Shown: positions 241-17,565, counted from the first letter of the stretch. The stretch is DNA of 18,133 nt from a bacterium (GCA_021373025.1 JAJFTL010000036.1:1-18133); one strand, 5' to 3'. Numbers and translations are program-made. Notes: a model not told the origin generated them from the sequence alone.

Positions 241-1617
241 TCAGGCTTCTATGACAACGACCTGGTCCGTCACCGAAGTAACGCGCCCGGAGATCGATGC
301 ATGAATACTTGCTCCAAGCTTGCCTTCAGCGGGGCTGCCAATCAACTGGCCTGTGGTTACTGTATCACCAACCGCTACCATGGGGACCGCAGGCACGCCG
401 ATGTGCTGTTTGAGACTGATGCTCACCCTGTCCGTACGCACGTCAGATTCATCCCAGTCGACAGGTCCAGCATGATACGCTCCAACGCCCAGACGGGCGA
501 CCAGGCGATCCGTAGGAACAAGCCTCCCTTCACGAAAGGCGTCTGGCGTGAGGTCTGTCCGGCGATGCACGTCATTCTTCCAGCCGGATGCTGCAAGCTC
601 GCGCTTTATCTTTTGGTAGAACTGCATGGGCGAAAGCTCGAGAGGGCAGGAGTAGGCCTCACAAAGACGACATTCGCAGCACAGGACTGCACTCGTGAGC
701 ACGTCATTTTTGACGTTGATGCCGTAGGCGCCAGCTCTCATGATCTCATGAGGGCTGAATCCATGACCAAGCAGGTGACGGGGGCAGAGGACGGTACAAT
801 CGCGGCATTGGTCGCAGCTCGCTTTGCCACGCCTGGTCCAGAGTTCGAGGGAGCGAGACATGAAGCGAACGACTTCATTCTCCACCGGGAGTACCAGGAT
901 GCCACCCGTGGTCTTGGTGATCGACTCCGTCTTCACGTCGGAAACGAGGTGCCCGGTCATGGGTCCGCCGACAACAACCCTGAGCTCATCTGCGCTACGC
1001 GTATAGCCGCCTGCCAGTTCGAGCACCTTGTCAAATGACATCCCTACAGGAACGTAGACAGTCTTGGGGGATTTGACCTCACCGTTGATCGTTACGTATC
1101 GGCGTGTCACTGGTATCCCTTCGTCAACCGCGCGTGCAATGTTGGCAAGCGTACCCACATTCTGCACGACACAGCCTACATTCAGAGGCAGCCCGGCCTC
1201 GGGGATAAGACGGCCTGTGACTTCGTAGACGAGACAGAACTCATCACCTGCTGGATACACGCTCTTCTCGATAATATAAAGGCTCACCGGCCATGCGTGT
1301 GCATCCTCAGAGTCCTTTTGACGCTCAAGTTCTGTTTCAAGTGCGGTGACAGCATGTGTATAGTGCGCCTTGACTGCAATAAGTCCGCGCTGCGCTCCTA
1401 CGGCCTGCATAACAAGTCGCATGCCACGGATGACGAGTTCGGGATGAGCCGCCATGAGCTGCTGGTCACACCGCAACATGGGTTCGCACTCAGCCCCGTT
1501 TGCAATGACGGTGTCCACATTCTTCGCAACAAGCTTCACGTGAGTTGGAAACCCGGCCCCTCCCGCTCCAACGATACCTGCTGCTTTGACGCGTTCTACG
1601 ATTTCTTCGGGAGTCAT
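241..1617 (-). CDS. pduS: PduS-like cob(II)alamin reductase / RnfC-family NADH:flavin Fe-S oxidoreductase
   Basis: 458 aa. The N-terminus has GAGGAGFPTHVK, the NADH/FMN-binding motif of the Complex1_51K, RnfC and PduS family. Two 4Fe-4S ferredoxin motifs follow (CDQCRDCTVLCP and CCECRLCEAYSCP). A C-terminal barrel domain is present, which is the PduS domain order. The start ATG overlaps the pduT stop as ATGA. Confidence 0.8.
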   Translation of the reverse strand: MTPEEIVERVKAAGIVGAGGAGFPTHVKLVAKNVDTVIANGAECEPMLRCDQQLMAAHPELVIRGMRLVMQAVGAQRGLIAVKAHYTHAVTALETELERQKDSEDAHAWPVSLYIIEKSVYPAGDEFCLVYEVTGRLIPEAGLPLNVGCVVQNVGTLANIARAVDEGIPVTRRYVTINGEVKSPKTVYVPVGMSFDKVLELAGGYTRSADELRVVVGGPMTGHLVSDVKTESITKTTGGILVLPVENEVVRFMSRSLELWTRRGKASCDQCRDCTVLCPRHLLGHGFSPHEIMRAGAYGINVKNDVLTSAVLCCECRLCEAYSCPLELSPMQFYQKIKRELAASGWKNDVHRRTDLTPDAFREGRLVPTDRLVARLGVGAYHAGPVDWDESDVRTDRVSISLKQHIGVPAVPMVAVGDTVTTGQLIGSPAEGKLGASIHASISGRVTSVTDQVVVIEA

Positions 1618-2165
1618 ATGATCTTTTCTCTGACCTGATCGGCAAGCTGTGAAATGACTGTCTTGCGGACAAGCAATCCATCTTCCGTCGGCCTGACGAT
1701 GCCGGCAGCGACTGACGCCTCGACGTCGGCGACTTCACCCTCCATGAGCAGGAAGCTCTTGCCCCCAAGTCCATTGGCGAGACGCAGCTCGAGCAAATTC
1801 ACTTCCGCCGCCTTGGCCGCCGCATCAGATGCCACAATGCACGACGCAGCAGTGACCGTTTCAATGATACCCAGCGCAGCCCCGTTTGTCGTTTCAGAAC
1901 TGAGATCCAGAGCAGAGAAAATTGCCGGATGAGCATTGGGCAGGAACAATGTATCCACGACGGATGCACCAGCTATCTGAACACCTGCTCGCAGAGCATT
2001 GCTGACCTGGCTCGTGTCGCCGCGGAACAGGACCATATACTTTCCAGGACAAATCGACCTGGCCTCAAGTAGCTCTACCGAAGCCCTCTTGACTGCTGCA
2101 TCTGCAGCTTCGATGCCTGCTGCAACACTGTCTGTCTCGATGAAGCCAATCGCTTTCTCAACCAT
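1614..2165 (-). CDS. pduT: PduT-like tandem-BMC-domain (BMC-T) shell protein with the Fe-S-ligating Cys
   Basis: About 183 aa with two BMC (Pfam PF00936-like) repeats: IGFIETDSVAAGIEAADAAVKRA and ALGIIETVTAASCIVASDAAAKAAEV. An SICPGKY motif matches the PduT TICPGKF motif holding the 4Fe-4S Cys. An ATG at 2165 is preceded by AGGAGG at 8 nt. The ORF track start at 2171 is a GTG two codons upstream. Confidence 0.75.
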   Translation of the reverse strand: MVEKAIGFIETDSVAAGIEAADAAVKRASVELLEARSICPGKYMVLFRGDTSQVSNALRAGVQIAGASVVDTLFLPNAHPAIFSALDLSSETTNGAALGIIETVTAASCIVASDAAAKAAEVNLLELRLANGLGGKSFLLMEGEVADVEASVAAGIVRPTEDGLLVRKTVISQLADQVREKII

Positions 2166-2233
2166 TGTCACTACCTCCTACCGAGCTCATGTTCTGCAGG
2201 GTCGAGCACTACATGCCCGCTTCATGCATGTTC

Positions 2234-3154
2234 TCACCACAACTGCGCGACTTCGCCCGCTATGTTGTTCATCGCAATACCAATGGGCGTCACGAACAGC
2301 GGCTCCCCTGGTATGATTGTCTCGATACCGGTAACTTCTTCAATGACACGGTCCATGCCAGGAAAACGTGCAGAACCTCCACACAGGTAGATCCGCTTGG
2401 GATGATAAGCCTCAACGTGACGCGATACAATGGTCGCGACTTTTTCCATAACTGCCTTGACAGCCGGGAAGAGCCTGGCCTGTTCAGCGGGATTCGTTTT
2501 GAGTGCCTCTGCATCCATGAATGGAATGTGCATAGCCCCAGCGACAACGAGGGTGAACTGCGTTCCGCCAGTTGGCTCATCCGCCGTATACACGACCTTG
2601 CCACCTTCAATGACGGCAAGCTTTGTCGTTCCACCACCAACGTCGACAACGACGCCGCTGTCGATCTGAAGGATCGTGTTTGCAGCAGTGGCTTCATCGA
2701 CAAGTCGGGAACATTCAATGCCGGCTCCCTGCAGCACGTTGCCTGTGGCACGCACTTCCGCTAGAGGAACGCCGGGCGGATAGGCCGTCGCAGCTGATTC
2801 GATCTTGCGTCCGATTCGCTCTTCCACCTGCTGTTTCAGCTTCCTGACGATGCTGATGGCGCCCATATAGTCAAACACGACTCCTTCCCGCACGACCTGA
2901 GCAAACTGGTAAGCGCCGGCAAGAGGTGTCATGTTTTCGTCCAGGACGACCAGGACCGTATAAGCAGTCCCAAGATCAACGCCAACATGTAGTTCGCCCT
3001 TGTATGATACCGACGGGGCGGGCGTTCCGGCATAGACGATGACCTTGTCGGCTTCATCGAGGACTTCCTGCAACCTCGGGTTCATGCCCCCCGACTCTGT
3101 TGCAAGCTTCAGGGCACTCCGCCTTTTCTCATCGACCCCTGACTGTATCATCAT
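2234..3154 (-). CDS. eutJ: EutJ, an actin/Hsp70-fold putative chaperonin of the eut operon
   Basis: 306 aa. The protein aligns along its length with E. coli EutJ, including the VGVDLGT phosphate-1 motif, DVGGGTT and LCGGSA motifs. The first ATG overlaps the pduO stop as ATGATGA. An alternative internal start (MNPRLQ) lies at 3085. Confidence 0.8.
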   Translation of the reverse strand: MMIQSGVDEKRRSALKLATESGGMNPRLQEVLDEADKVIVYAGTPAPSVSYKGELHVGVDLGTAYTVLVVLDENMTPLAGAYQFAQVVREGVVFDYMGAISIVRKLKQQVEERIGRKIESAATAYPPGVPLAEVRATGNVLQGAGIECSRLVDEATAANTILQIDSGVVVDVGGGTTKLAVIEGGKVVYTADEPTGGTQFTLVVAGAMHIPFMDAEALKTNPAEQARLFPAVKAVMEKVATIVSRHVEAYHPKRIYLCGGSARFPGMDRVIEEVTGIETIIPGEPLFVTPIGIAMNNIAGEVAQLW

Positions 3155-3690
3155 GCGTTATGTTCCTCTCCAGCTTCTTCATATCTTGCCAGTGCAAACA
3201 AGACATCCGAGGTTCTGTTGAGATATGCTGCCACGTTTTCGTTGGGAAGTTCACCAGACTCCATGAGGCCGATGACCCGCCGTTCTGCACGCCGGACGAC
3301 AGCGCGAGCCAGATCAATCGCAGCAGCTCCCACGGTCGCTCCCGGTATGATAAAGACGTTGGGCATGGACACCTTGCTCTCGATATCAACAATACATTGC
3401 TCGAGCTTTTTGACCATCTCTGCAGTGACAATCCACCCATGCTCCGCCAGCCTGTCATGGTACATGGGTTCCGTCGCCAGTTCGGCTGCCACAATACCAA
3501 GATCCTTCTGGATTCTGTCCAAGATCTCGCGAGAGTATTGTCGAACACACAGAGCCTTTGCGAGACCCAGTGTCGAGTTCAGTTCATCTATAGTTCCATA
3601 TGCTTCAGGCCGGGGGCTATTCTTGGAGACGCGCCCTCCATACAACAAACTCGTCTGTCCCTTGTCTCCAGCACCAATATTCGGTTTCAT
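3151..3690 (-). CDS. pduO: PduO-type ATP:cob(I)alamin adenosyltransferase
   Basis: 179 aa. The N-terminus GAGDKGQTSLLYGGRVSKNSPRPEAYGTIDELNS matches the PduO/MMAB family signature (TGDKG-TSL ... R-x-x-K ... E-x-YG-x-DEL). The size indicates the adenosyltransferase domain only, with no DUF336 extension. Confidence 0.85.
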   Translation of the reverse strand: MKPNIGAGDKGQTSLLYGGRVSKNSPRPEAYGTIDELNSTLGLAKALCVRQYSREILDRIQKDLGIVAAELATEPMYHDRLAEHGWIVTAEMVKKLEQCIVDIESKVSMPNVFIIPGATVGAAAIDLARAVVRRAERRVIGLMESGELPNENVAAYLNRTSDVLFALARYEEAGEEHNA

Positions 3691-3714
3691 GGTATGCTTT
3701 CTCTCCTTCCTGGT

Positions 3715-3759
3715 GGGCAGGACGAGACCTGCAATGACACAGTCCGTCTCCTCCTGCCC
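3715..3759 (-). promoter_or_regulatory. Intercistronic GC-rich stem-loop between the 67-aa ORF and pduO (13 bp with one mismatch, 16-nt loop, no U-tract)
   Basis: Minus-strand sequence: GGGCAGGAG-GAGAC-GGACTGTGTCATTGCAG-GTCTC-G-TCCTGCCC. The pduO SD AGGAAGGAGAG follows directly. Confidence 0.4.
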
Positions 3760-3783
3760 AAAGCTACAATCGGGGCATGCCGC

Positions 3784-3987
3784 CTATCCGAATGAGACGG
3801 GCGGGCGGGGAGGCCTGCAGGACTCGCTGTCTCCGGCCGATTCTTCGAAACGGATCTCCATACGCCACTGCTTGATAAAATCAGCAGCTGATGGAGAGAA
3901 GCGCGTGCCGACTGGAAAACACAGAACGATCCCTGTCTCCGGTCTCCGTATCTTGCTTCTTATTTCTGCTTCGGTAACGATTCGCAT
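3784..3987 (-). CDS. Small hypothetical protein (67 aa) carrying an EutQ N-terminal-like motif
   Basis: VTEAEIRSKIRRPETGIVLCFPVGTRFSPSAADFIKQWRMEI aligns position by position with the N-terminus of the EutQ in this window (ISKFDIERLKSEGQTVLHLEPGDTLTPLARDTALELGIKL). It also aligns with E. coli EutQ (LITANDIRAAHARGEQ...SIITPEAREVADLLGF). An SD GAGGAG lies 7 nt upstream of the ATG. The ORF sits in the gap between eutC1 and pduO. Confidence 0.4.
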   Translation of the reverse strand: MRIVTEAEIRSKIRRPETGIVLCFPVGTRFSPSAADFIKQWRMEIRFEESAGDSESCRPPRPPVSFG

Positions 3988-4001
3988 ACAGCTTCTCCTC
4001 G

Positions 4002-4050: not shown

Positions 4051-4068
4051 GCGTCGGTCGGTTTGTTT

Positions 4069-4824
4069 CTACAGTTTGAGCGCGACGCCGCTCACCTTCT
4101 GCTCCAACATGCGCTTCGCGATATCAACAATCGTCGCTGCAGCTTCCATCGGGTTCAGGCCCTGGCTGTAGATGTTCGAGATACAGTTCCTTTCGCCATC
4201 AGTGTCAGTCATCTTTGCCTTATATGCCATGTAGGCGCTGAGACTGGTTTGAGTAACCAGGCCGGGCCGTTCACCGATCAGCATGATAGCGACGTCAGGC
4301 TGCAGAACACGGCACACGTCATTCAACAGACGAACACGACCATTGTCCACATAGAACGGTGTCCCAAATGTGATACCGGCAGCCTCAAAACCATGTTTCA
4401 AAGCTGGCAGCAGATCTGGCAGATTCTCCATGACAGCAGAAGACGAGAGTCCTTCACTGATAAACACCTGAACCTGCGCTCCCTTCTTGCAATGAGCAAG
4501 AATCGCTTCTTCAGCTTCCTTGGTGAGAATGCCACCTTTCTCGGGATGGGCGAGGTAATCGTGCTTGTCCGTACAGACTGTGGAAACGCGAAGCGCAACG
4601 CCATGCTCCGTCAGGAACTCGTCAGGGATCCTGGTCCAGATCGCATCCTTCGCCGATGCTTCATCAAGACGGAACGACAACCATGCATCCACGGGAGGCC
4701 TGGCTCCTACACGCCCCGTTGCAATACGTGCAGGAGTTGCTCGCATCATTCCTTCGATCGCTTCGCGGTTGTATGGATTCTTGACACCCATTGCCCTGTG
4801 CTCAAAACCTTTTAGTTCACCCAT
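4069..4824 (-). CDS. eutC: Ethanolamine ammonia-lyase small subunit EutC, copy 1 (short N-terminus)
   Basis: 251 aa. The conserved TPARIATGRVGARPP motif matches TPARIGVGRAGPRP in E. coli EutC. The C-terminal ERPGL...SAYMAYK region is conserved. It lies 15 nt downstream of eutB1. Confidence 0.85.
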   Translation of the reverse strand: MGELKGFEHRAMGVKNPYNREAIEGMMRATPARIATGRVGARPPVDAWLSFRLDEASAKDAIWTRIPDEFLTEHGVALRVSTVCTDKHDYLAHPEKGGILTKEAEEAILAHCKKGAQVQVFISEGLSSSAVMENLPDLLPALKHGFEAAGITFGTPFYVDNGRVRLLNDVCRVLQPDVAIMLIGERPGLVTQTSLSAYMAYKAKMTDTDGERNCISNIYSQGLNPMEAAATIVDIAKRMLEQKVSGVALKL

Positions 4825-4839
4825 TGTGGCCTCCTGTGC

Positions 4840-6228
4840 CTACCAGAGGAAGATGTCAGACGGCTCGGCGGAGAAGATGGACGGATCGCCAGCTCTGTCA
4901 GTGAGTTTGCCATTTTTCAGCAAGCCCATTCGTTCCATCCAGCGCTCAAACTCGGGAGCCGGGTGCCGGTCAAAGACCTCGCGCATCGAGGCGTCATCAT
5001 GGTTGCTCGTGTCCTGGTAGCTCAGCATGACATCGTCACCCATGGGGATACCCATGTAGTAGACAGCACCACCAATCCCAGCAAGCAGGTTCGCCATTTC
5101 CTGACCGTTATGGTTCATATCAACATGGTTGACATAGCAGGGTGCCATGCCCATCGGGAATCCATGCATCTTGCCGGCAAACAAGTCTTCAAGAGTGCCG
5201 TAGGCGATCTGGAAGGTATCAAGATGGGTCTCCGGCCCGATGAACCCAGTGACATTGTTCACACAGAAAGGTCGGAAGTGACGGCCGTATCCATAGGTGC
5301 GGGACTCAAGTGTCTGTTCGTCGCAGCCGAAATCAAGACCGACCGACATCTCGGAGCCTTGGCCGGTCTCGAAATACATAACGTTGGGGCCTGCGCAGAA
5401 GGAGTACTCGCGAGCAAGAGCCCATGCCTCTTCCATCATCTTGAGGTCGATGCCGAAGCCCTTGTTGGCTGGCTCACATCCGGCAATGCTCTGGAAGAAC
5501 AGACCGATGTGTGCGCCACGTTTGGCGGCTTCCATTTGGCCGGTGATGTGCCCAAGAGCTGAGTTCTGGGTAGGAATCTGCCACTTTTCGATGAGCCCAT
5601 ACGTCATCTCAAGGATGCGCACGAGTGTATCTGGAGTTGGATCCACTGGGTTGACGCCGATAACGACATCGCCCGCACCATAGGAAAGGCCGTCAAGAAT
5701 CGAGGCACGAATGCCGTCGATGTCGTCCGTCGGGTGGTTTGGTTGGTTGCGGAAGGACATCGTTCCAGGCAAACCAATAGTGGTGTTGGCCGTTGTCACG
5801 TTAATGATTTTCTTGGATGCAACGACCAGGTCCATGACCGACATGATACGGATAACAGCAGAGATCATTTCCGAGGTCAGCCCGACACGAATTCGTTGAA
5901 TGTCCTCGTTGGTAGTGTTCTGATCAAGCAGGTATCCACGCAGGTCGGCGACGGTCCAACCTTTGATCTTGTTGTAGATAGTCTTGTTCGTATCGTCGAT
6001 GATGACGCGCGTAACTTCGTCTGTCTCATAGGGGAGAACGGGGTTTTCGAAGATATCCTGAAGGGTCAGATTCGCTACAACCCACTTGGCCGCGATACGC
6101 TCGCGTTCGGATTGTGCTGCGACCCCGATCAATTCATCGCCGGACCGCTTCTCTGCCGATTTGGCAAGGACATCCTTCACAGACTTGAAGGAATACGCCT
6201 GTCCTTGCAGCGTTGTTGTGAGATTCAT
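4840..6228 (-). CDS. eutB: Ethanolamine ammonia-lyase large subunit EutB, copy 1 (the more divergent paralogue)
   Basis: 462 aa. PNHPTDD, LSYGAGDVVIGVNP, NVMYFETGQGSE, GFIGPE and GIPMGDDVMLSYQ are EutB TIM-barrel signatures. The region after GFIGPE diverges markedly from canonical EutB and from copy 2. Confidence 0.9.
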   Translation of the reverse strand: MNLTTTLQGQAYSFKSVKDVLAKSAEKRSGDELIGVAAQSERERIAAKWVVANLTLQDIFENPVLPYETDEVTRVIIDDTNKTIYNKIKGWTVADLRGYLLDQNTTNEDIQRIRVGLTSEMISAVIRIMSVMDLVVASKKIINVTTANTTIGLPGTMSFRNQPNHPTDDIDGIRASILDGLSYGAGDVVIGVNPVDPTPDTLVRILEMTYGLIEKWQIPTQNSALGHITGQMEAAKRGAHIGLFFQSIAGCEPANKGFGIDLKMMEEAWALAREYSFCAGPNVMYFETGQGSEMSVGLDFGCDEQTLESRTYGYGRHFRPFCVNNVTGFIGPETHLDTFQIAYGTLEDLFAGKMHGFPMGMAPCYVNHVDMNHNGQEMANLLAGIGGAVYYMGIPMGDDVMLSYQDTSNHDDASMREVFDRHPAPEFERWMERMGLLKNGKLTDRAGDPSIFSAEPSDIFLW

Positions 6229-6265: not shown

Positions 6266-6341
6266 AAACTCTCGGTTCCTGGTTGATACACAAATATCCT
6301 CGAACATCGAGGCCGCGGCTTCGATACCCCCTGCACGACCG

Positions 6342-7586
6342 CTACGGAACGATTGGACTTGGCGTCGTTTTGCCAAGTTTGATCGTCTCCTGGAATGGAC
6401 GCCAGAGGCCAGTGTTCTCATCACGACCCTGAAGAAGCACCACGCGAGCCGCACTTGCTTGGCCAGGAAGTGCCTCCTTATACAGCGATCCAATATCTCC
6501 ACCCTTCACTCGATTGATGAGGTAGATCAGCTTCGTCTGTGGAAACTGGGTCATCATCTCAAAGTCACCATCGCTGTCGCCGGCAACAAAGAGAGGAGCT
6601 TCTTTGATGAAGTTGCGAATGACCGTTGCTTTTCCCATGCGCTGGGTCAGTTCATAGCCGGGTTCTTCACTCAGCTTGGCAATGTACTTCCCGGACGCAT
6701 CCGTCTGGAGACGAACGCCAATCACATGGTCTTCAGGAACGTCGTACCCGTTGATTGCGGCAACTGCCTGGACGACCGGCTCAAATGATGCAGATACCAC
6801 CCACACCTTCCAGCCATAATACCGCTGTTTCGACATCATGTCGATGATGCCCTGGGAAAGGCGGATGCCTGCCCTATATGTATACGAGGCTACAGCGGCT
6901 TTTCGCTCAAGACCTGTTGGGGCATGCATAGTAATCTTCTCGATCTTACGAGCAAGTGCATCATTGAGTGCGGCGACTGCCATCTTCTGGACTTCCGCCT
7001 CGGTCATCCCTTCGCAGAGAAAACAGACCCAAGGATACGAGTACTCGGCACCAATCTCGGGAGTGTCTGTCAGCCCATCATACATGAATGGCAGTTTGAC
7101 CAGAAAATCCTGATACTCTGGTGTCGCCGTGATTTCCTCCAGCGTCATCTTCTTGAGACCGATATAGTTGTCATACAAAAAGGCATAGTCGGCCTGAATG
7201 TCCGAGGCGAGGTCCGCAAGAACCACATTGCCATAATCGGCCGAAAACTTCACAACATTGGAATCCTTGAGGGTCTTTCCTGCAGCTTCCGGGATAATGC
7301 TGTTGAAAGCTTCTTTACTCATTGCATAGTCCAGGTTGAACATCTGGAAACGGAACATCGTCTCCATGATGTCATTGTAGATGCACGTATTATCCCAGTC
7401 ATAGACGGCCACCGGATGCGTCGGACCATACTTCTTGATAAACCAGTCCGTATAGATCCAGTTAAACGGTGTATAGCCAACGTACGTTCCGGACGGAACG
7501 CCGGCTGCCAGGGTGATACCTGAAACCGATGAAACGAGCAGTGCGACAAGGAGCACAATCGATATGATCTTGATGGTTCGTTTCAT
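6342..7586 (-). CDS. Secreted or membrane-anchored HAD-superfamily hydrolase (HAD-IB-like with a large cap domain)
   Basis: The start is re-assigned to the ATG at 7586, which is preceded by a GGGGA SD. The N-terminus MKRTIKIISIVLLVALLVSSVSGITLAAG is a signal peptide or signal anchor. HAD motif I is VAVYDWDNT (DxDxT). Motif II is VWVVSAS. Motif IV is LFVAGDSDGDFEMM. The ORF track extends the frame to 7748 through an intergenic hairpin, which is unlikely to be real coding sequence. Confidence 0.7.
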   Translation of the reverse strand: MKRTIKIISIVLLVALLVSSVSGITLAAGVPSGTYVGYTPFNWIYTDWFIKKYGPTHPVAVYDWDNTCIYNDIMETMFRFQMFNLDYAMSKEAFNSIIPEAAGKTLKDSNVVKFSADYGNVVLADLASDIQADYAFLYDNYIGLKKMTLEEITATPEYQDFLVKLPFMYDGLTDTPEIGAEYSYPWVCFLCEGMTEAEVQKMAVAALNDALARKIEKITMHAPTGLERKAAVASYTYRAGIRLSQGIIDMMSKQRYYGWKVWVVSASFEPVVQAVAAINGYDVPEDHVIGVRLQTDASGKYIAKLSEEPGYELTQRMGKATVIRNFIKEAPLFVAGDSDGDFEMMTQFPQTKLIYLINRVKGGDIGSLYKEALPGQASAARVVLLQGRDENTGLWRPFQETIKLGKTTPSPIVP

Positions 7587-8546: not shown

Positions 8547-8846
8547 CTACTCAGCGTCGGCCGGCCGCTTCGGCAGCAACATTTCCGTGTCGCTGGCTGG
8601 ACGAGGGATAACATGAACCGAGACAAGTTCACCGACGCGCTGAGCGGCGGCTGCACCTGCATCGGTAGCAGCTTTGACAGCTCCGACGTCACCACGTACC
8701 ATAACGGTAACAAGTCCGGAACCGATTCGTTCCTGGCCAATCAGCTTGACGTTTGCTGCCTTGACCATGGCGTCGGCGGCCTCAATAGCTCCGACGAGTC
8801 CCTTGGTTTCAATCATGCCAAGTGCAATCATGCCTGGATCTGCCAT
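8547..8846 (-). CDS. eutM: BMC-H hexameric shell protein (EutM/PduA family)
   Basis: [32 protein letters not shown]...[32 protein letters not shown] is the canonical BMC domain. An ATG at 8846 is preceded by AAGGAG at 8 nt. The ORF track start at 8855 is a GTG. Confidence 0.85.
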
Positions 8847-10273: not shown

Positions 10274-11773
10274 CTACCCCTTGTGCGCCAGTTCCTCGCG
10301 GATCACCTTGCGCACCATTGCCTCGATCTCTGACGTAGATGGCTTTTCAGATGTCGCCGAGGCAGCTGGAGCGGAAACGGACGATGACCTGCGCCCATCT
10401 ACGATGGGTGGTTCAAACGGCCGCAGTCCATACGCGATGCGTTTCACATTGAACAGGTGATACACCGTGATGTTGTCACTGCTGATACCACCACCCATAC
10501 CACCAGTAGCCAGGGTCAACGAGGGCATGAGGCCGGTCGTGTACCCAATGGCGCCGCCTGTGGTGCCGGCGTTGACAATGATACGGAATGCAGGTTTCTG
10601 AAGCCCGAACTGCATGATGATGTCCTCATCAGTGCAGTGTAATCCCATCGTGTGTCCCTTGCCGCCAAACTCAAGTATCTCGATGCACCGCGCACACCCA
10701 GCGTGCCACCCGTCCTCGACAAAAAAAGCAACCACGGGGGCAAGCTTCTCGCGCGAAAGAGGGACCTTTGGACCAACTTCGGAGAGCCTGGCGACCAGAA
10801 TGCGTGCCTCGTCAGGAACCTTGAATCCGGCTTGTTCGGCCAGCACCTGTGGTGAGCGCCCTACAAAGTTGGCCTGCATGAGTCCGTTCGAACGGATCAT
10901 GGCTTTGCCCAGCTTGTCAGCCTGCTCATCTGACAAGAAGTATGCCCCGTTTCTCTCCAGGGCTTTCACAAGCTGGTCGGCGATCGGTTTGTCTGCAATG
11001 ATGGCATTCTCATGAGCACAGATGACCGCGTGGTCAAAGTTGACGCTGGTCACAATGTCATGAGCTGCCTTCTCGATGTCCGCGCTGCGATCGACGTAGA
11101 GCGGAACGTTACCAGGACCGACGCCGAGTGCCGGTTTGCCTACGCTGTGCGCGTATGAAACCATGGCTTCGCCACCGGTTGCAACAATCAGCTTGATCTC
11201 GGGCCGCTTGAGCAGCTCCGATGTTCCTTCCATGCTGATGTGTGTCATGCAGCTGATGAGGCCCTTGGGGGCTCCAGCAGCCTCTGCCGCCTCTTCTAGA
11301 ATGCGAACCGCCTCAGCGGTACACTTCGGGGCCGAAGGGTGTGGAAGAATAATGATAGCATTGCGCGCCTTGACGGCGGTAATCGCATTGAAGATTGCTG
11401 TGGATGTCGGGTTGGTCGTGGGGACCATAGCGGCAATGACACCAAAGGGCCAGGCGATCTCGATGATCTTATTGGCTTCATCACGTCTGATAACGCCCTC
11501 TGTCCGAACATCCTTGATGGACATCCATACGTTCTTCGATGCAAACTGGTTTTTGATCGTCTTGTGCTCAGCGACACCCATGTGCGTCTCTTCGGCTGCC
11601 ATGCGGCCAAGACGCTCTGCTGCTTCGTATGCAGCTTCAGCCATCGATGCACAGACGACGTCAACCTGGTATTGGTTAAAGTGAACAAATGCTTCCTGCG
11701 CGACCTCAGCCTGCTGTGCCAGATTTCGGGCCTCTTGAATAGAGAGCAGGTCTTGGTCGAGTTCTTCCGGCAT
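10274..11773 (-). CDS. eutE: EutE/PduP-type CoA-acylating aldehyde dehydrogenase with a C-terminal encapsulation-peptide-like helix
   Basis: 499 aa with an ALDH fold. The catalytic-Cys region reads VNFDHAVICAHENAII. The ATGGEAMV region typical of acylating ALDHs is present. After the catalytic domain comes an S/A-rich linker (RRSSSVSAPAASATSEKPSTS), then an amphipathic helix EIEAMVRKVIREELAHKG at the extreme C-terminus. An SD AAGAGGAGG lies upstream. Confidence 0.9.
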   Translation of the reverse strand: MPEELDQDLLSIQEARNLAQQAEVAQEAFVHFNQYQVDVVCASMAEAAYEAAERLGRMAAEETHMGVAEHKTIKNQFASKNVWMSIKDVRTEGVIRRDEANKIIEIAWPFGVIAAMVPTTNPTSTAIFNAITAVKARNAIIILPHPSAPKCTAEAVRILEEAAEAAGAPKGLISCMTHISMEGTSELLKRPEIKLIVATGGEAMVSYAHSVGKPALGVGPGNVPLYVDRSADIEKAAHDIVTSVNFDHAVICAHENAIIADKPIADQLVKALERNGAYFLSDEQADKLGKAMIRSNGLMQANFVGRSPQVLAEQAGFKVPDEARILVARLSEVGPKVPLSREKLAPVVAFFVEDGWHAGCARCIEILEFGGKGHTMGLHCTDEDIIMQFGLQKPAFRIIVNAGTTGGAIGYTTGLMPSLTLATGGMGGGISSDNITVYHLFNVKRIAYGLRPFEPPIVDGRRSSSVSAPAASATSEKPSTSEIEAMVRKVIREELAHKG

Positions 11774-11801
11774 GTTCTGCCTCCTCTTACAGATCTCCGC
11801 C

Positions 11802-11821
11802 CCGGTTCAGACTCAAACCGG
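11802..11821 (-). promoter_or_regulatory. Intercistronic hairpin between eutL and eutE (CCGGTT-TGAGTCTG-AACCGG)
   Basis: 6-bp perfect stem with an 8-nt loop. The strong eutE SD AAGAGGAGG follows. Confidence 0.3.
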
Positions 11822-11865
11822 AACGCCTATCAGAAACGACGTCGTGCGAGTTGCAGAACACTACT

Positions 11866-12540
11866 CTACTGGAAGGCCAGCGGGTCCTGGGCCACAGACA
11901 TGATGGCCTCATCGAACGCACGGCAGGCGGCACGGCAAGCACTCTGTGTGCCGACCAGATAAGCGCCCTGATAGTTGGTCTCACTGAGCTGCGTGAATGC
12001 GCCAACTGATACATCAGCAGCCTTCAATGCCCGCTCCATCGCATAGGTACCTTCAAGAGGCGGTGCAGTGATGTATGCAATCGGTGTGCCGGCTGGAACT
12101 CCGGCCTCCTTCGAGAGATATGTGCCGGTACGGGAGATTGTGTACGCCAGCCAGACCAGTGTGGGCACAACACTAAAGTGCGGCATTGTGACCGTCGAGT
12201 ATCGCAGCGAGTCCACAAACTCGAAGACTGCATTGATCCCCGCAGTAGCTTCTGCAGGATTTGGCGCCGCCAGGAAAAGCATAGCTTCGCCCGAAATGGG
12301 ACCAGACGGGTAGCTACCACCAGCGAAGTGCGAGCGGCAGTATGCTACACGGACCTCGGCTTTCTTGGTCGCTTCATCTCCGCCGATATACAGCGGATCA
12401 TCGATATTGCAGGTGAACATTGCCAGACTCTTCTCACCTTCGAGGAGACCCAGTGTCTTGGCCATGTCGGGATGAACATTGGGAATGAGTCTCACCGACA
12501 GGATTTCTGGCTTCAGGGTACGTTCCATCTCTAGAGCCAT
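11866..12540 (-). CDS. eutL: EutL, a tandem-domain BMC-T shell protein
   Basis: 224 aa. It aligns along its length with E. coli EutL, including IGGDEATKKAEVRVAY, GPNPAEATAG, VSRTGTYLS, YITAPPLE and GTQSACRAACRAF. An SD GGAAGGAG lies upstream. Confidence 0.85.
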   Translation of the reverse strand: MALEMERTLKPEILSVRLIPNVHPDMAKTLGLLEGEKSLAMFTCNIDDPLYIGGDEATKKAEVRVAYCRSHFAGGSYPSGPISGEAMLFLAAPNPAEATAGINAVFEFVDSLRYSTVTMPHFSVVPTLVWLAYTISRTGTYLSKEAGVPAGTPIAYITAPPLEGTYAMERALKAADVSVGAFTQLSETNYQGAYLVGTQSACRAACRAFDEAIMSVAQDPLAFQ

Positions 12541-12690
12541 GTCATTTTACTCCTTCCTAATACTCGTTCTCAGGTTGCCCGGAACATCTCTTGAGACTAT
12601 TCCAGACCCTTCGACGGAATCCAGCAGCCGGTCCCGGGGCAGATCCCAGGATCGTGGAATCGACCCCAGGGACCGGTGATTACTACCGTA
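12541..12690 (-). promoter_or_regulatory. 150-nt structured eutC2-eutL intergenic region containing a long GC-rich inverted repeat, nested short palindromes and a twice-repeated GGATTCC motif
   Basis: Minus-strand sequence: CACCGGTCCCTGGGG TCGATTCCACGATCCTGGGATCT GCCCCGGGACCGG (about 12-bp imperfect stem), then CTGGATTCCGTCGAAGGGTCTGGAATAG. The eutL SD GGAAGGAG follows. No U-tract and no recognisable riboswitch consensus was found. Confidence 0.3.
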
Positions 12691-13557
12691 CTAAGCTCTC
12701 TTCGCAGTGGCGAGTGCAACGCCGCTGGTCTTGTACTTCAGGTAATCCTTGACAAGAGCGACTGCCTCAGCAGCTGCTTCGATCGGGTCCTTGCCGCGCT
12801 TGGAGATCATGCAGATGTTGTCGCGGTTAGCATCGGTCGTGAGCGGCTCCCAACGAGGCTTGTAGCCCATGTAGATGGAGAGTGCATCAGAGATGATGAG
12901 ACCCGGGCGCTCGCCAATCAGTACGACGACGACCTCTGCGTTCAGGAGCGCTCCAACATCATTCATGATGCCGACGCGTGCGCGGTTGACATAGATCGGG
13001 GTACCGATATTGATGCCGGCAGCCTTGAGTCCATCAATCATTGCATTCAGGACGTCCTTGGCGGAATGCTCGATGGCGTATCCACTCAGGCCGTTGCTGA
13101 CAACAAACTGAACGGTCGGGTTCTTGGCACACTTCTCAAGAACGACGGCCTTGGCCTCGTCACTCAGCTTTCGGCCAAGCGGAGGAAAGCGCAGATAGGT
13201 CTCAAGAGAGCCATTTGCAGCAGTCTCGCCGACATGTAGGAGTCCCATTGCCGTAACGGTCTCTTCTGGAATAACGTACTTCAATGAGTCCTGTGTAGCA
13301 GCATGGTCCGCTCGCATCTGGAAATACGTGAGCAGCTTTGGACGGGGACCGTTGCGACCAACGCAAATGCGAAGAGGTGTCGCATGGATGAGGGCCTTTG
13401 CGCCTTCAGGATCGACCGGATGATCGATGCCAACAGTTTCGCGAGCCTCTGTCGTCGTCACATCGGTCACGTCACAGCTGAACTTGGCAGCTTCGTCGCG
13501 CCTTGCTACAATGTCAGCCTGGCTCTGCTTTCCAACGTAAAGTTCGTATGTAGCCAT
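12691..13557 (-). CDS. eutC: Ethanolamine ammonia-lyase small subunit EutC, copy 2 (with an N-terminal extension of roughly 50 aa)
   Basis: 288 aa. The ATPLRICVGRNGPRP motif and the C-terminal GERPGL...SIYMGYKP region are conserved. It lies 15 nt downstream of eutB2. Confidence 0.85.
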   Translation of the reverse strand: MATYELYVGKQSQADIVARRDEAAKFSCDVTDVTTTEARETVGIDHPVDPEGAKALIHATPLRICVGRNGPRPKLLTYFQMRADHAATQDSLKYVIPEETVTAMGLLHVGETAANGSLETYLRFPPLGRKLSDEAKAVVLEKCAKNPTVQFVVSNGLSGYAIEHSAKDVLNAMIDGLKAAGINIGTPIYVNRARVGIMNDVGALLNAEVVVVLIGERPGLIISDALSIYMGYKPRWEPLTTDANRDNICMISKRGKDPIEAAAEAVALVKDYLKYKTSGVALATAKRA

Positions 13558-13572
13558 GTCTACTCTCCTTTC

Positions 13573-14940
13573 CTACCGCTTCAGGAAGAACGATGCGTCG
13601 CCGGCCTTGTCGGTCAGTTTGCCATTCTTGAGCAGGCCAAGTTCCTCAAGCCACTGCTCCCATTCAGGAGCGGGGCGAGTACCCATTGCACTCCAGAGCG
13701 AAGCGGTATCGTGGAAGCTTGCGCACTGATAGCTCAACATGACATCGTCTCCCATCGGCACGCCCATATGGTAGTTGCAGCCGGCGACGGCATCAAGGAC
13801 CATCAGGAACTCGTTCGTGTTCTGATCGGCGCGGACGTGGTTCGTGTAGCAGTTGTCCAACCCGAGCGGAATGCCGAGGAGTTTCCCGCAGAAGTGATCC
13901 TCAAGACCAGCGCGCATGATTTCGTCGGAGTTGTACAGATATTCCGGTCCGATGAACCCTACAACGGAGTTGACGCCGATAGGATTGTAACGACGGGCAA
14001 GGGCATGCTTGCGTGCTTCGAGTGTCAGCTGGTCAGCACCATTGTTCGCATAGGCGGACAGTTCTGTGCCTTCACCAGTCTCAAAATACATATAGTTGGG
14101 GCCTTCAGCATAGCAGTACTTGTGTGCCAGTTCATTGGCTTCGTCAAGCATGCCAACTTCGACACCGAAGGACTCAAGAGCAGCCTGGGTTCCCGCAATG
14201 CTCTGGAAGACCTGGCCAATCTTGGCACCCTTCTTCAGACACTCCATCTGCGTCGTAACATGGCCCAAAATGCAGTTGGACGCAGGGATATTCCACGTCT
14301 GCTTGATATCCCACAAGACGTCGTAGATCTTCATGAGGTTCTCAACCTGGTCAATTGCCGGGTTAATGCCGATAACCTGGTCGCCGATGCCATATGACAA
14401 ACCATCGTAGACCTCGGCGCGAATGGCATCGATGTCATCGGTTGGATGGTTTGGCTGAAGACGTGCACCAATGCGACCGGGGAGGCCCATTGTACAAACG
14501 TTGTGAACCACGCACGGCATCTTCTTGCCCCCGACAATAAGGTCAAGGCTTGAGCAAAGCTTGGCGATGGCCGCAGCCATTTCGCCGGTAAGACCATGGC
14601 TGATTGCTCTGATGTCTTCAGATGAGGTATTCTCATCAAGGATCCAGGCGCGCATCTCACCAACAGTCTTGTTTTTGATCTTCTCGTAGGCGACGGCGTC
14701 AATGTCATCGTCAATAGCACGAGTGACCTCGTCTTCTTCATACGGAACAACCGGCTGGGCGCGGAGAACCCACATCGGGATCTCGGCAAGAACAGTCTTT
14801 GCCGCTACCCTTTCCTCAACACTTTTTGCGGCAACACCCGCCCCTTCGTCGCCGGACTTCTGTTCGTTCGCTTTGGCGAGAACTTCTTTGACGTCTTTGA
14901 ACTCGTACGTTCTGCCAAACAGTTTAGTACGAAATGCCAT
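13573..14940 (-). CDS. eutB: Ethanolamine ammonia-lyase large subunit EutB, copy 2 (canonical-like)
   Basis: 455 aa. PNHPTDDIDAIRAEVYDGLSYGIGDQVIGINP, NYMYFETGEGTELS, VVGFIGPEYLYNSDEIMRAGLEDHF, NCYTNHVRADQNT and GVPMGDDVMLSYQ closely match canonical EutB. Confidence 0.9.
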   Translation of the reverse strand: MAFRTKLFGRTYEFKDVKEVLAKANEQKSGDEGAGVAAKSVEERVAAKTVLAEIPMWVLRAQPVVPYEEDEVTRAIDDDIDAVAYEKIKNKTVGEMRAWILDENTSSEDIRAISHGLTGEMAAAIAKLCSSLDLIVGGKKMPCVVHNVCTMGLPGRIGARLQPNHPTDDIDAIRAEVYDGLSYGIGDQVIGINPAIDQVENLMKIYDVLWDIKQTWNIPASNCILGHVTTQMECLKKGAKIGQVFQSIAGTQAALESFGVEVGMLDEANELAHKYCYAEGPNYMYFETGEGTELSAYANNGADQLTLEARKHALARRYNPIGVNSVVGFIGPEYLYNSDEIMRAGLEDHFCGKLLGIPLGLDNCYTNHVRADQNTNEFLMVLDAVAGCNYHMGVPMGDDVMLSYQCASFHDTASLWSAMGTRPAPEWEQWLEELGLLKNGKLTDKAGDASFFLKR

Positions 14941-14952
14941 GTTTCCTCCTTG

Positions 14953-16422
14953 TCACATAGAGAAGATAAGCGTCTTCACTGAAAGAGAGACAAGACGATC
15001 TCCTAGCATCGATTGACCAATGTCAATGTAATCCCCTTCTGTCAGAGTGACTTCATCAATCGAGAGCACCTTGAACTGGGGTAGCCCGGCACTTACGACC
15101 TGTCCCAATGCTTTGCCCAGGTCGCGCTCAGTCACCAGAATCAGTGGGATACTCGGCGAAATGTACTTGGTGGCAAACGATTCTATACCGTGTGCCAGCT
15201 TCTTCAGGTCGTCATAGCTGCCCACTGCCAACAAGTCAAGAGCGAGAGCTACTCGATCCTTTGTGGGATCGAGATCCCAGCGATTATAGCCATCCATAAT
15301 CGATTTTTCAAGCACCTGTTCGTCGGGGATGCCATCGAATATTGGACGGATAACTGGGACATTGCGCATGGGTAGCTCCTTTGGAGCAACCCATATGGTC
15401 ATGCCACTCAACGTGATTGTCTCGTGGCTAGCGCCCATGACGGTCGCACGCTCAGTGTGAACAGGCTTGAGTACTGTCCACTCCTTGACGCGCGGGTGAT
15501 TCCGTAATTCCTCGCCCATGAGAGGTCCGATGTCACCGTAGACAGCGACATCCTGGATGGTTCTGATGGGGTTGCTATCGTAGTAGAAGTCCGCGACTCC
15601 GCCCGAGAAGAAGATCGTCGTACCGGCAACAGACCGGGATAATGGAGTGGTTTCCATCAGATCACGGGCCATCCGTGACACATTGGCGGACAAGACTTCG
15701 ACGATCAGGTCCACCATGAGATGTGCAACCTTGCGAAGAACATCTACTGTAGCAACATCACCAACCTTGAGCTCGATGCCAAGATGGTTCAGCATCTTCT
15801 CACCACTCTTGGTGATATGCTTGACGGTTCCCGTCGCCTGGTCTACCTGGATATGGCGTCCTCCGACCGAGAGGACGACCGTGTCCACAAGGTCTCCCTG
15901 CCGGAACACTGCGATGTTCGTCGTACCACCGCCGATATCGACGTTGGTTGCCCACGCAAAGTGCTCAGAAGACCATGCAGCTGCTCCGGAACCACGGCCA
16001 GCCAGGTGGGCCTCCAGACTGGGGCCAGCGACGGTCGACACAAAGTCTCCTGCGAGCGGAGCCACGATATTGAGCACGCGCTCAGCATTCTGGCTCTTGG
16101 CGGCTTCCCCTGTGATGATGACTGCACCTGTATCGATCTGATCGGGCGTAAAACCCGCTTCCTTGTAGTCAGCAGTCAAGATCTTCTCCAGTTCATCAAC
16201 GTCCACCAGTCCGTTGGGATCAATGGGCGTAAAGTGCACGGGGCTCTGATAGAGGACGTCCTTCTTGGCAACATCCGCTCTCGGTTTGCGTGCAGGGCCA
16301 TACCTTGCCTGCGGCATCGAGCTGAGGGTCGCCGTCTCCGCAACGAGCAATTTCGAGATAACGATCTGTGTCGTCGTTGTCCCTATGTCCACTCCAACAC
16401 TGATGAGTTCAACTGATGCCAT
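14953..16422 (-). CDS. eutA: EutA ethanolamine ammonia-lyase reactivase
   Basis: About 489 aa. Two ASKHA-type ATPase motifs are present (VGVDIGTTTTQIV and NVDIGGGTTNIAVF). Overall it resembles EutA. The start is re-assigned to the ATG at 16422 (MASVELISVG), which is preceded by GAGAGGTG. The ORF track extends to 16488. Confidence 0.85.
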   Translation of the reverse strand: MASVELISVGVDIGTTTTQIVISKLLVAETATLSSMPQARYGPARKPRADVAKKDVLYQSPVHFTPIDPNGLVDVDELEKILTADYKEAGFTPDQIDTGAVIITGEAAKSQNAERVLNIVAPLAGDFVSTVAGPSLEAHLAGRGSGAAAWSSEHFAWATNVDIGGGTTNIAVFRQGDLVDTVVLSVGGRHIQVDQATGTVKHITKSGEKMLNHLGIELKVGDVATVDVLRKVAHLMVDLIVEVLSANVSRMARDLMETTPLSRSVAGTTIFFSGGVADFYYDSNPIRTIQDVAVYGDIGPLMGEELRNHPRVKEWTVLKPVHTERATVMGASHETITLSGMTIWVAPKELPMRNVPVIRPIFDGIPDEQVLEKSIMDGYNRWDLDPTKDRVALALDLLAVGSYDDLKKLAHGIESFATKYISPSIPLILVTERDLGKALGQVVSAGLPQFKVLSIDEVTLTEGDYIDIGQSMLGDRLVSLSVKTLIFSM

Positions 16423-16435
16423 GAATACACCTCTC

Positions 16436-17233
16436 TTACTTTTCTGCTTTGTGATTGTTCTTTCTTGCAGCATCGTTTTTGTCAACAAACAGATATGCCT
16501 TCAGTGACGTAACCAATGCCTTCTTTGCCCCCTGCACTTTCTTGAGTTCCTCGACTGAACCGAATGGTCCCTGCTGCTCACGAAACTCGACAATGCGCTC
16601 CGCAAGTGCAGGACCCACACCGGGCAAGGCATCAAGCTGACTTGCTGTTGCCGTGTTCAGATTGACTCGCTTTCCCGGGGTCCTGGACACCGGCTGTTGC
16701 GCAGCAAGAGAGAAGTCCGCGTGAGCGGGCTGGATGGGCGATCGTATAGGAGCGGTTTCCCCTGCGGGCACTGTGCTCACCTTCTGTTCCGCAGGAATCG
16801 CGGCTTCTTCTGCTGAAGCTGTCAATGCCTGTGCGCCGGGCTCAGCAGGCGTTTTGACCGAAGGTGACGCATCCATGCTTCCGGGTACCGGAGTCGTGCC
16901 GGGTGCAGGACTCGCTCCCTCGCCAACGGGGAGTCCAAGGTTCCTGTTCATCGCATCGACGATCATATCAATGTCGCGATCTGGACGTGGAATGACGTGA
17001 ATGGACACCAATTCCCCCACCCGCTGCGCAGCGGCTGCCCCTGCATCCGTGGCTGCCTTCACTGCTCCAACATCGCCACGAACAGCAACCGTCACCAGGC
17101 CGTCTCCAGAGTATCCCTTCCCGACAAGCCGCACATTGGCGGACTTGACCATGGCATCTGCCGCCTCAATGGCACCAATAAGCCCCCTGGTCTCAATCAA
17201 CCCCAACGCAACAAGCTTTTCGCTGTCAGGCAT
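16436..17233 (-). CDS. BMC-H shell domain fused by a long P/A/S/T-rich linker to a C-terminal ComEA-like helix-hairpin-helix domain
   Basis: Residues 1 to about 90 form a canonical BMC domain ([32 protein letters not shown]...[13 protein letters not shown]), about 80% identical to the eutM product. An approximately 90-residue low-complexity linker follows. Residues from about 185 read [55 protein letters not shown]. This matches the ComEA C-terminal HhH repeat region (INLNTA..EL..LPGIGP..A..I..YRE.NG.F.S.EDL..V.GIG...L..L). The second HhH lacks the GIG motif. Confidence 0.8.
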
Positions 17234-17271
17234 GGTACCCCATCCTCAGCCTACCGTTCAGTAGAGCCCGG

Positions 17272-17565
17272 TCATGACTTGTTGAAGGTATCGTGGCCAT
17301 CAACTTCCAGGGAATCAAGGATACCGACGATCGTGGCATCGGCAGGAGCCTGGTCTGTGAGATCCGTTTGTCTGCCCGCGCTGCCGAGAGCTACGAGGAC
17401 AAGTTCTCCCTCGCCAGCGCCTACGGCGTCAACGGCAACGATCGGGTTGCCCTCCAGCAGTTCATTCCGTACCGTCGCCTGTTGAACGATCAAGAGCTTG
17501 CGGGCCGAAAGTTTCCCGGCCTTGATCGTTGAGACTGCCGAGCCAACAACGCGAGCAATGATCAT
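17272..17565 (-). CDS. eutN: EutN/PduN/CcmL-family BMC-P pentameric vertex protein
   Basis: 97 aa. MIIARVVGSAVSTIKAGKLSARKLLIVQQ...IVAVDAVGAGEGELVLVALGSAGRQ matches the EutN/CcmL fold signature (M-x-I-A-x-V-x-G-x-V-x-S-T-x-K...D-x-x-G-A-G-x-G-E-x-V-L-V). An SD GGGAGGA lies 8 nt upstream. Confidence 0.8.
   Translation of the reverse strand: MIIARVVGSAVSTIKAGKLSARKLLIVQQATVRNELLEGNPIVAVDAVGAGEGELVLVALGSAGRQTDLTDQAPADATIVGILDSLEVDGHDTFNKS

Follow-up and report, generated by a model that had tools for sequence, protein, structure and literature searches.

An EUT2-like ethanolamine microcompartment operon of Candidatus Cryosericum with a PduS/PduT pair and a convergent pta neighbour

How a bacterial microcompartment (BMC) for ethanolamine utilisation (eut) may regain its NAD+ and its coenzyme A (CoA) when its operon encodes neither an alcohol dehydrogenase (ADH) nor a phosphotransacylase is the question raised by JAJFTL010000036.1:1-18133 (assembly GCA_021373025.1), a stretch of 18,133 nucleotides that is called the window here. 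On its minus strand, open reading frame (ORF) calls, Pfam and NCBIfam place an 18-gene eut microcompartment operon, running head to tail from position 17565 to position 241. The reading proposed below, which is considered probable as a whole, is that of an EUT2-family metabolosome without ADH, in which a PduS/PduT pair would export electrons and a neighbouring pta, together with EutQ, would serve the release of CoA.

In this model, EutH would import ethanolamine, and the shell would be built of an EutM-like hexamer (BMC-H), a BMC-H fused to a helix-hairpin-helix (HhH) domain, EutL, a PduT-like trimer and EutN. Inside the shell, two adenosylcobalamin-dependent EutBC isoforms would release acetaldehyde and ammonia, with EutA reactivating EutBC and a PduO-type adenosyltransferase re-adenosylating the corrinoid. 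EutE, targeted by a C-terminal helix, would oxidise the acetaldehyde to acetyl-CoA with the formation of NADH, which PduS (MNdh) would re-oxidise by passing electrons through flavin mononucleotide and two [4Fe-4S] clusters to the [4Fe-4S] cluster of the PduT pore and from there to a cytosolic acceptor, with no ethanol being made. The release of CoA would lie outside the operon, where a convergent pta and EutQ, the latter acting as acetate kinase, would most likely take over.

The PduS/PduT pair and the type of the locus

The PduS-like protein of the window has the domain set of MNdh, PF01512, PF10531 and PF13534 being joined by PF13375 at the C-terminus, an arrangement that is permuted relative to RnfC, whose chains and structures align to PduS from RnfC residue ~120 onward. 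It carries two Cys4 (4Fe-4S) motifs, CDQCRDCTVLCP and CCECRLCEAYSCP, and its gene directly adjoins that of a BMC-T bearing a CPGK motif, the start of PduS overlapping the stop of PduT by 4 nt. This PduT-like protein, a tandem BMC of ~183 amino acids (aa), has its best solved relatives in 3NWG (168 bits), PduT 3PAC (134 bits) and 3N79 (123 bits), and the CPGK motif is present both in the window and in all five relatives checked.

In the work of Sutter et al. 2024 (PMC11626177), PduS is MNdh and PduT is BMC-T^SE, and the oxidation of NADH and the reduction of the Fe-S clusters were followed by biochemistry and electron paramagnetic resonance using a Clostridium botulinum homologue, with NAD+ regeneration by electron export being proposed. 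The same study describes the C-terminal PF13375 of MNdh as a circular permutation, counts 361 loci that have PduS/T and no ADH, and finds PduS/T to be widespread in BMCs that do not use B12. The window shares with this module the four Pfam domains, the C-terminal PF13375, the adjacent CP(G/S)K tandem BMC-T, the aldehyde dehydrogenase and the absence of ADH, and nothing distinctive was detected in it; a gene for a flavoprotein of the CoA-disulfide-reductase (CoADR)/NADH-oxidase family lies next door, with no evidence of a link.

An earlier, sequence-only reading of the window had put forward the regeneration of NAD+ through PduS-to-PduT electron export without ethanol, and this is retained as the most likely mechanism, the sequence hallmarks having been found. 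It had also held a PduS/PduT pair without ADH to be unusual in a eut context, a view that has to be given up, since this very combination defines the catalogued types EUT2B and EUT2D and the export mechanism has been published and tested (PMC11626177), so that electron export is neither new nor unusual for eut. Given that PduS/PduT without ADH is already known in eut loci, the residual novelty is the switch from pduL to pta and a few accessory genes.

In the catalogue of Sutter et al. 2021 (PMC8217296, Supplementary Data 2), EUT2B (147 loci) and EUT2D (28 loci) have the PduS/PduT pair without ADH, a type I aldehyde dehydrogenase with a C-terminal encapsulation peptide (EP) is associated with EUT2, and the pfam06130 phosphotransacylase separates EUT2 from EUT1. 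Axen et al. 2014 (PMC4207490) report that EutG is encoded only by EUT2A, that EUT2B and EUT2D encode PduS, and that a pta-like phosphotransacylase is used by EUT1 alone. The aldehyde dehydrogenase of the window is of the EUT2 kind, with TIGR02518 as its best model and a conserved C-terminal amphipathic helix. Here the type I class of the catalogue (IPR013357) is assumed to be equivalent to TIGR02518.

The window also has the trait of EUT2B and EUT2D, namely a PduS/PduT pair with no ADH family in the operon or in the 10 kb downstream, and it shares with them EutABC, EutL, the type I aldehyde dehydrogenase with C-terminal EP, the adjacency of PduS and PduT, EutQ, EutJ, EutH and an adenosyltransferase; the EUT2D locus of Thermincola shows the same parts list in a different gene order. 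On the other hand, the window lacks the pfam06130 PduL of EUT2, which is found in two outgroup loci (L017 and L023, described below), as well as acetate kinase, the pfam02441 flavoprotein, EutS/EutP and a regulator, and it has two EutBC pairs, a HAD gene and an HhH-fused BMC-H. The type seen in the window occurs in Caldisericota and Spirochaetes, not in Firmicutes.

With EUT1 (Salmonella/E. coli) the window has EutQ, EutJ, EutH, EutA, EutL and EutN in common, and the EutK of EUT1, a BMC-H with a C-terminal domain of nucleic-acid-binding type, is comparable to the BMC-H::HhH fusion. EUT1, however, has EutG, EutT and EutR, lacks PduS/PduT, has a type II aldehyde dehydrogenase with an N-terminal EP and keeps its pta-family (pfam01515) EutD inside the operon, whereas in the present locus EutG, EutT and EutR were not found, the EP is C-terminal and pta is placed beyond the operon, on the opposite strand.

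In the trees of Sutter 2021, Chloroflexi bacterium ADurb.Bin180, whose PduS clusters with that of the outgroup, carries the label 'bmcType=UA (omitted)', and the name 'Caldiserica' was not found in the searchable portion of the supplementary data. Because PduL is missing, the gene order is unlike that of the Thermincola EUT2D locus and ADurb.Bin180 is set down as 'UA (omitted)', the locus is filed, by its gene content, as EUT2-like without a subtype.

The operon, its relatives and the convergent pta

The genes are given below in the order of the operon, preceded by a candidate promoter-like site, with the coordinates of the whole stretch.

17756-17784, minus strand: promoter-like site TTGACA-17-TAGACT, from a consensus scan, ~190 nt upstream of the first gene; a candidate only
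17272-17565, minus strand: EutN-type pentamer (BMC-P), the first gene (PF03319, 88.9 bits; NF053795/NF011992)
16436-17233, minus strand: BMC-H with a Pro/Ala-rich linker and a C-terminal ComEA-like HhH (PF00936, residues 9-84; PF12836 (HHH_3), residues 188-248; TIGR00426, 58.7 against a cut-off of 53)
14953-16422, minus strand: EutA reactivase (PF06277, 493.6 bits; start placed at the ATG of MASVEL)
13573-14940, minus strand: EutB1, ethanolamine ammonia-lyase large subunit, E. coli/Listeria-like, Asp362 kept (PF06751, 621 bits; 3ABO, 569 bits; active-site columns)
12691-13557, minus strand: EutC1, small subunit (PF05985, residues 53-282; N-terminal extension of ~45 aa, conserved in relatives)
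11866-12540, minus strand: EutL, permuted-type BMC-T (TIGR04502, 243.8 bits; NF011934, 238 against a cut-off of 198)
10274-11773, minus strand: EutE-type CoA-acylating acetaldehyde dehydrogenase (TIGR02518, 587.9 bits, best model)
8936-10111, minus strand: EutH, ethanolamine permease (PF04346, 370.6 bits; 391 aa as called in the related locus L001)
8547-8846, minus strand: BMC-H, EutM-like major hexamer (PF00936, 105.5 bits; NF012018 EutM, 133.7 bits)
7752-8447, minus strand: EutQ, with a cupin (acetate-kinase family) domain (PF06249, 104 bits; NF012001, 124.5 bits, below the curated cut-off)
6342-7586, minus strand: HAD-IB-like hydrolase with an N-terminal signal/transmembrane segment (PF12710; TIGR01488; DxDxT and GDSDGD motifs)
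4840-6228, minus strand: EutB2, second large subunit (PF06751, 592 bits; Ala362/Pro363 clade)
4069-4824, minus strand: EutC2, second small subunit, without the N-terminal extension (PF05985, 245.6 bits, residues 21-250)
3784-3987, minus strand: conserved 67-aa ORF, orf67 (no Pfam or NCBIfam match; 61-89% identical in relatives)
3151-3690, minus strand: PduO-type ATP:cob(I)alamin adenosyltransferase (PF01923, 159.7 bits; TIGR00636, 145 against a cut-off of 108)
2234-3154, minus strand: EutJ, actin/Hsp70-fold protein (NF011660, 327.9 against a cut-off of 182)
1614-2165, minus strand: PduT-like tandem BMC-T (BMC-T^SE) with the CPGK Fe-S pore motif (two PF00936 stretches)
241-1617, minus strand: PduS-like flavo-iron-sulfur NADH dehydrogenase (MNdh) (PF01512, 10-161; PF10531, 174-222; PF13534, 267-328; PF13375, 396-454)

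Every gene named by the sequence-only reading, which had set the operon at 241-17565, was recovered by ORF calls, Pfam and NCBIfam, and two genes come in addition to its list, those of the 414-aa HAD-IB-like protein (6342-7586) and of the conserved 67-aa ORF (3784-3987). The domains of an EUT-type locus are present, with PF06751 and PF05985 found twice each, PF06277, PF00936 in four proteins, and PF03319. All plausible long ORFs of the window sit on the minus strand, the final 240 nt past PduS are non-coding on that strand, and the coding density of the operon leaves no space for a further gene.

Judged by sequence, the window holds the complete ethanolamine-utilisation operon of a Candidatus Cryosericum (Caldisericota) bacterium. 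Its PduS has exactly the sequence of an annotated protein of a Candidatus Cryosericum metagenome-assembled genome (MAG), the window is 99.8% identical to the NCBI contig JBDKUI010000028.1 over 11.6 kb, and a scan for EutH in species-representative genomes returned only MAGs of Caldisericota/Cryosericum and of Spirochaetes/Treponemataceae. Four Cryosericum loci (L004, L005, L013 and L016) repeat this gene content and order, with 61-98% protein identity, and a further one, L024, has the distal half of the operon, with frameshifts. Four spirochaete loci (L008, L009, L010 and L022), at 67-70% G+C against 55%, keep the same order without the EutB2-EutC2-orf67-PduO block, L008 being also without the HAD gene. 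An assembly artefact or a chance arrangement was ruled out, the same architecture being present in independent MAGs and metagenomes, and the recurrence of this gene order in independent Cryosericum and spirochaete loci indicates that the architecture is real and under selection.

More distant relatives, the outgroup loci L017 and L023, have a PduS that is 60-62% identical to that of the window and an EutB2 that is 79% identical, and they probably belong to Anaerolineae/Chloroflexi, going by names in a neighbouring cluster of 59%-identical PduS homologues. Their genes follow the order of the window from EutL as far as PduS, EutB2-EutC2-small ORF-PduO included, and then continue on the same strand with PduL (PF06130) and AckA, and no pta stands at the operon end; the lineage of the window, in contrast, lacks pduL and ackA and has the convergent pta. 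The outgroup differs further in lacking the HAD gene and in having an extra BMC-H between EutE and EutH. In the outgroup lineage (the P0037 cluster, with Anaerolineae/Chloroflexi ADurb.Bin180), PduS and PduL are adjacent, and P0127 (665 aa) is an apparent PduS-PduL fusion.

Within the operon of the window, Pfam scans gave no match to PF06130, PF01515 or the ADH families among the ORFs, a tblastn of the PduL and AckA of a relative against the window returned nothing (E >= 1.3), and the PduL of L017 gave only matches of E >= 0.2 against the window and eight related loci. The absence of ADH and phosphotransacylase from the operon, as claimed by the sequence-only reading, is thus borne out by coding density, Pfam scans and tblastn. 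A decayed pduL/ackA remnant was considered and rejected, as tblastn finds none past PduS or elsewhere, in the window or in its relatives. No ADH was found within 10 kb downstream in the related loci, including the 500-700 kb contigs behind L016 and L024, and the ~2.5 kb upstream in these loci were compared by tblastn with the window proteins only, with no ADH-family scan. The earlier reading had pointed to a pduL or eutD together with an ADH just outside the window, in the same operon, as the finding that would overturn it; a pta does adjoin the window, though it is encoded on the opposite strand, and no ADH was found in the 10 kb downstream.

This pta stands just beyond the window, ~3-4.4 kb from where the operon ends, in convergent orientation, and its product passes the pta equivalogs (TIGR00651, 378.4 against 311.2; NF007233, 404 against 310). 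In Cryosericum it belongs to a convergent unit that reads, in transcription order, cobT, cobU, a 195-aa ORF, cobS, pta, a PepV-type dipeptidase, a small membrane protein and the CoADR/NADH-oxidase-family flavoprotein, which bears an SFANCGL motif. The full unit is visible in L016 (11486-18560) and L024 (11473-18554), the sequence of L001 ends inside pta (11440-15653), and in the spirochaete L022 the unit spans 11374-13974. In the spirochaete loci the same convergent position is taken by pta, a small ORF and the flavoprotein, the PepV dipeptidase being confined to Cryosericum, and the pta/CoADR-like unit is present wherever the sequence reaches, that is, in Cryosericum L001, L016 and L024 and in spirochaetes L008, L009 and L022. 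Between the two phyla Pta shows 74-78% identity, which is inside the span seen for the eut proteins (46-91%) in spite of the difference in G+C (55% versus 70%).

Beyond the convergent unit, a ParA/MipZ-like gene and an aminotransferase gene come next in both phyla. Given the occurrence in both phyla of the convergent unit followed by these two genes, the arrangement suggests that a block bigger than the operon may have been shared or transferred between them.

The simplest reading of these comparisons is that the Cryosericum/spirochaete lineage has lost a terminal pduL-ackA and would now rely on the neighbouring pta, given that no remnant is found in the window or its close relatives and that the outgroup operon ends in PduS-PduL-AckA. 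That the neighbouring Pta is indeed the phosphotransacylase of the pathway is given about an even chance.

Competing readings and the second lyase block

Several points weigh against the proposed model. The PduT-like protein scores 114 against TIGR02526, the cut-off of which is 250, the scores of EutE (TIGR02518) and EutQ (NF012001) are below the curated cut-offs, and TIGR01945 would name PduS an RnfC-subfamily protein (258 bits, with a cut-off of 246). Neither the regulator genes EutVW, PocR and EutR nor a cobalamin riboswitch were found in the window. The pta, being on the opposite strand and with its co-regulation with eut unproven, could be the housekeeping pta of the genome, and a satellite pduL, ackA or ADH may lie elsewhere in the genome. 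There is no EP-like extension on Pta, either N- or C-terminal, the full-length proteins of L016, L008 and L009 starting ~20 residues before the PEG/PEA motif and having no helix-bearing tail at the end, so that Pta may act only in the cytosol. The enzyme activities, the electron export in the organism and the location of Pta inside or outside the shell are, moreover, deduced from the genes.

The missing extension on Pta also favours the alternative that survives best, rather unlikely as it is, in which no phosphotransacylase takes part, the compartment would export acetyl-CoA, or exchange CoA and acetyl-CoA, via its pores, and pta would be no more than a housekeeping neighbour. The opposite strand of pta and the sharing of its unit with an unrelated PepV dipeptidase and a small membrane protein are in keeping with this, as is the lack of a phosphotransacylase in the locus of other metabolosome types (Axen 2014). 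It is harder to reconcile with the position of the pta/CoADR-like pair at the operon end in two phyla of very different G+C, with the presence of pduL-ackA in exactly those relatives that have no pta there, and with the fact that the Cryosericum pta stands on the same strand as the cobT/U/S nucleotide-loop genes, which fits a B12-dependent pathway. Nor does the want of an EP speak decisively for it, since in Salmonella the EP-less cargo EutG is still encapsulated by piggybacking, and EutQ's N-terminal part links cargo to the shell (PMC12487888).

It is also unlikely, in the present estimate, that neither recycling enzyme works inside the shell, in which case NAD+ would be regained purely via PduS/PduT, acetyl-CoA or CoA would cross the shell to a cytosolic Pta, and the CoADR-like flavoprotein would help an external CoA/redox pool.

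Another alternative concerns PduS itself, which might be mainly a corrin reductase feeding the PduO-type adenosyltransferase, with NAD+ being recycled otherwise. The operon is B12-dependent, with a PduO-type enzyme present and EutT not found, the first characterisation of PduS was that of a cobalamin reductase (PMC2982820), and both roles are called not mutually exclusive in PMC11626177. The organisation of the locus argues the other way, as the spirochaete relatives keep PduT-PduS without the block that holds PduO, and the translational coupling of PduS is with the CPGK shell protein instead of PduO; furthermore, neither the operon nor its immediate surroundings encode a further enzyme that would regenerate NAD+, and PduS/T is common in BMCs without B12 use (PMC11626177), all of which makes this role, as the main one, decidedly improbable.

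A conventional metabolosome with a split locus, its PduL-type phosphotransacylase and ADH at a satellite elsewhere in the genome, is likewise held to be most doubtful, for although BMC genomes often have satellite loci (Sutter 2021), the sequence examined reaches ~22 kb of the genome and the earlier reading raised the same possibility, the whole subtypes EUT2B and EUT2D are without ADH, the outgroup has pduL-ackA at the operon end and not at a satellite, and no PduL or ADH gene occurs within 10 kb downstream on the 500-700 kb contigs.

The proposed model of PduS/PduT electron export with a neighbouring pta treats PduO apart from the pair, and this departs from the sequence-only reading, which had taken PduS, PduT and PduO as one Pdu module. 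EutJ separates PduO from PduT-PduS, and PduO travels with EutB2-EutC2-orf67, as a block that is missing from the spirochaete relatives with PduT-PduS retained. The same reading was right to see a PduO-type adenosyltransferase in place of EutT, as TIGR00636 (145 against 108) is its sole NCBIfam match and no EutT model matches.

Within this block, EutB2 is 49% identical to EutB1, and its nearest relatives beyond the Cryosericum/Anaerolineae group are Firmicutes EutB proteins (54-59% identical). EutB2 has Ala362-Pro363, Asn161, Thr334-His335-Leu336 and Leu349, where the E. coli ethanolamine ammonia-lyase and EutB1 have Asp362, Leu161, Tyr-Leu-Tyr and His349. A large EutB clade is thus without Asp362, a residue that is reportedly among the ligands of the substrate amine in the E. 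coli enzyme. The idea that EutB2 might be a unique enzyme of altered specificity was rejected, given that Ala362-Pro363 marks a large existing clade, being present in 117 of the 120 homologues listed for EutB2, which include the EutB of Thermincola, Desulfosporosinus and other Firmicutes.

The product of orf67 is 31% identical to residues 1-59 of the Thermincola EUT2D-type adenosyltransferase, a protein of 255 aa (pairwise E 4e-9), and looks like a detached N-terminal adenosyltransferase domain. The N-terminus of EutQ matches that part of the Thermincola protein only weakly (26% across 57 residues, pairwise E 0.027) and does not align to orf67. Ahead of PduO, the 93-nt spacer (3691-3783) holds a long GC-rich inverted repeat, GGGCAGGAGGAGAC...GTCTCGTCCTGCCC.

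Since the kin of EutB2 are Firmicutes, EutC2 lacks the extension and orf67 resembles the N-terminus of the Thermincola adenosyltransferase, the whole block looks like a Firmicutes-type lyase-plus-adenosyltransferase unit that may have been grafted into the operon. EUT2K, a Desulfitobacterium fragment with EutABC and a cobalamin adenosyltransferase, is likewise a lyase-plus-adenosyltransferase unit, and EutB2 falls in the same Ala362/Pro363 clade as the EutB of Thermincola and Desulfosporosinus, which are among the Firmicutes genera hosting EUT2D loci. Unlike EUT2K, the block sits within a full BMC operon in which another EutABC is already present, the body of its adenosyltransferase is PduO-type, and the N-terminal domain is a separate 67-aa ORF.

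Shell, cargo and accessory proteins

The C-terminus of EutE, a protein whose TIGR02518 score is slightly below the equivalog cut-off of 620, consists of a variable Pro/Ala linker and a conserved amphipathic helix, (E/D)(I/L)E.(M/L)VR(K/R)V(I/V).EEL, seen in nine loci and interpreted as an encapsulation peptide. EutQ begins with a small domain, after which a linker and an amphipathic helix lead to its cupin domain, and conservation of this N-terminal part was observed.

The BMC-H::HhH fusion is kept in the Cryosericum and spirochaete loci, and PF00936 and HhH occur together in seven clusters (P0388, P0390, P0392, P0398, P0404, P0436 and P0444) among the best 150 matches from 1.84 billion representative proteins, so that at least seven representative clusters carry it. 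Its layout is analogous to that of EutK, but the putative DNA-binding fold differs, and no HhH fusions to shell proteins were found in the literature searched. A tethering of the organelle to DNA by this protein is a weaker alternative among the possible novel readings of the locus.

The mid-operon HAD-IB-like protein of 414 aa is kept in Cryosericum and in three of the four spirochaete loci (L009, L010 and L022), and it belongs to a small uncharacterised family with 135 database matches. Its role as a general eut accessory was rejected, because the homologues of Brevibacillus, Desulfosporosinus and Bacteroidales do not stand beside eut genes; that, as a secreted protein, it might act outside the cell to free ethanolamine from phosphoethanolamine is no more than a guess.

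The extra BMC-H between EutE and EutH occurs in some Caldisericota relatives and in the Anaerolineae-like outgroup (L006 3304-3585, L007 2367-2633, L011 7017-7298, L014 9552-9833 and L017 2160-2468). The window and its closest relatives are without this gene, and a remnant of it in the window was looked for and rejected, none being detectable.

Apart from a leader of ~300 nt, the stretch upstream of the operon (17566-18133) holds no more than the C-terminus of an ABC ATPase; the 3' end of this ABC-transporter ATPase gene is the conserved upstream neighbour in the Cryosericum loci. A riboswitch or an ANTAR-type leader was rejected, Rfam being empty over the whole window at gathering thresholds and over 17400-18133 at E<=1, and the window has no tRNAs.

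Finally, no description of a BMC in Cryosericum, Caldisericota or these Spirochaetes, or of a link of Cryosericum or Caldisericota to ethanolamine, was found in the searchable literature, and the present locus documents a potential for ethanolamine catabolism in Candidatus Cryosericum. The alternation of pduL and pta in loci that are otherwise syntenic offers a comparison that bears on the need for internal CoA recycling as against the exit of acetyl-CoA, and if acetyl-CoA or CoA did cross the shell, at least one BMC family would be at odds with the 'private CoA pool' model.

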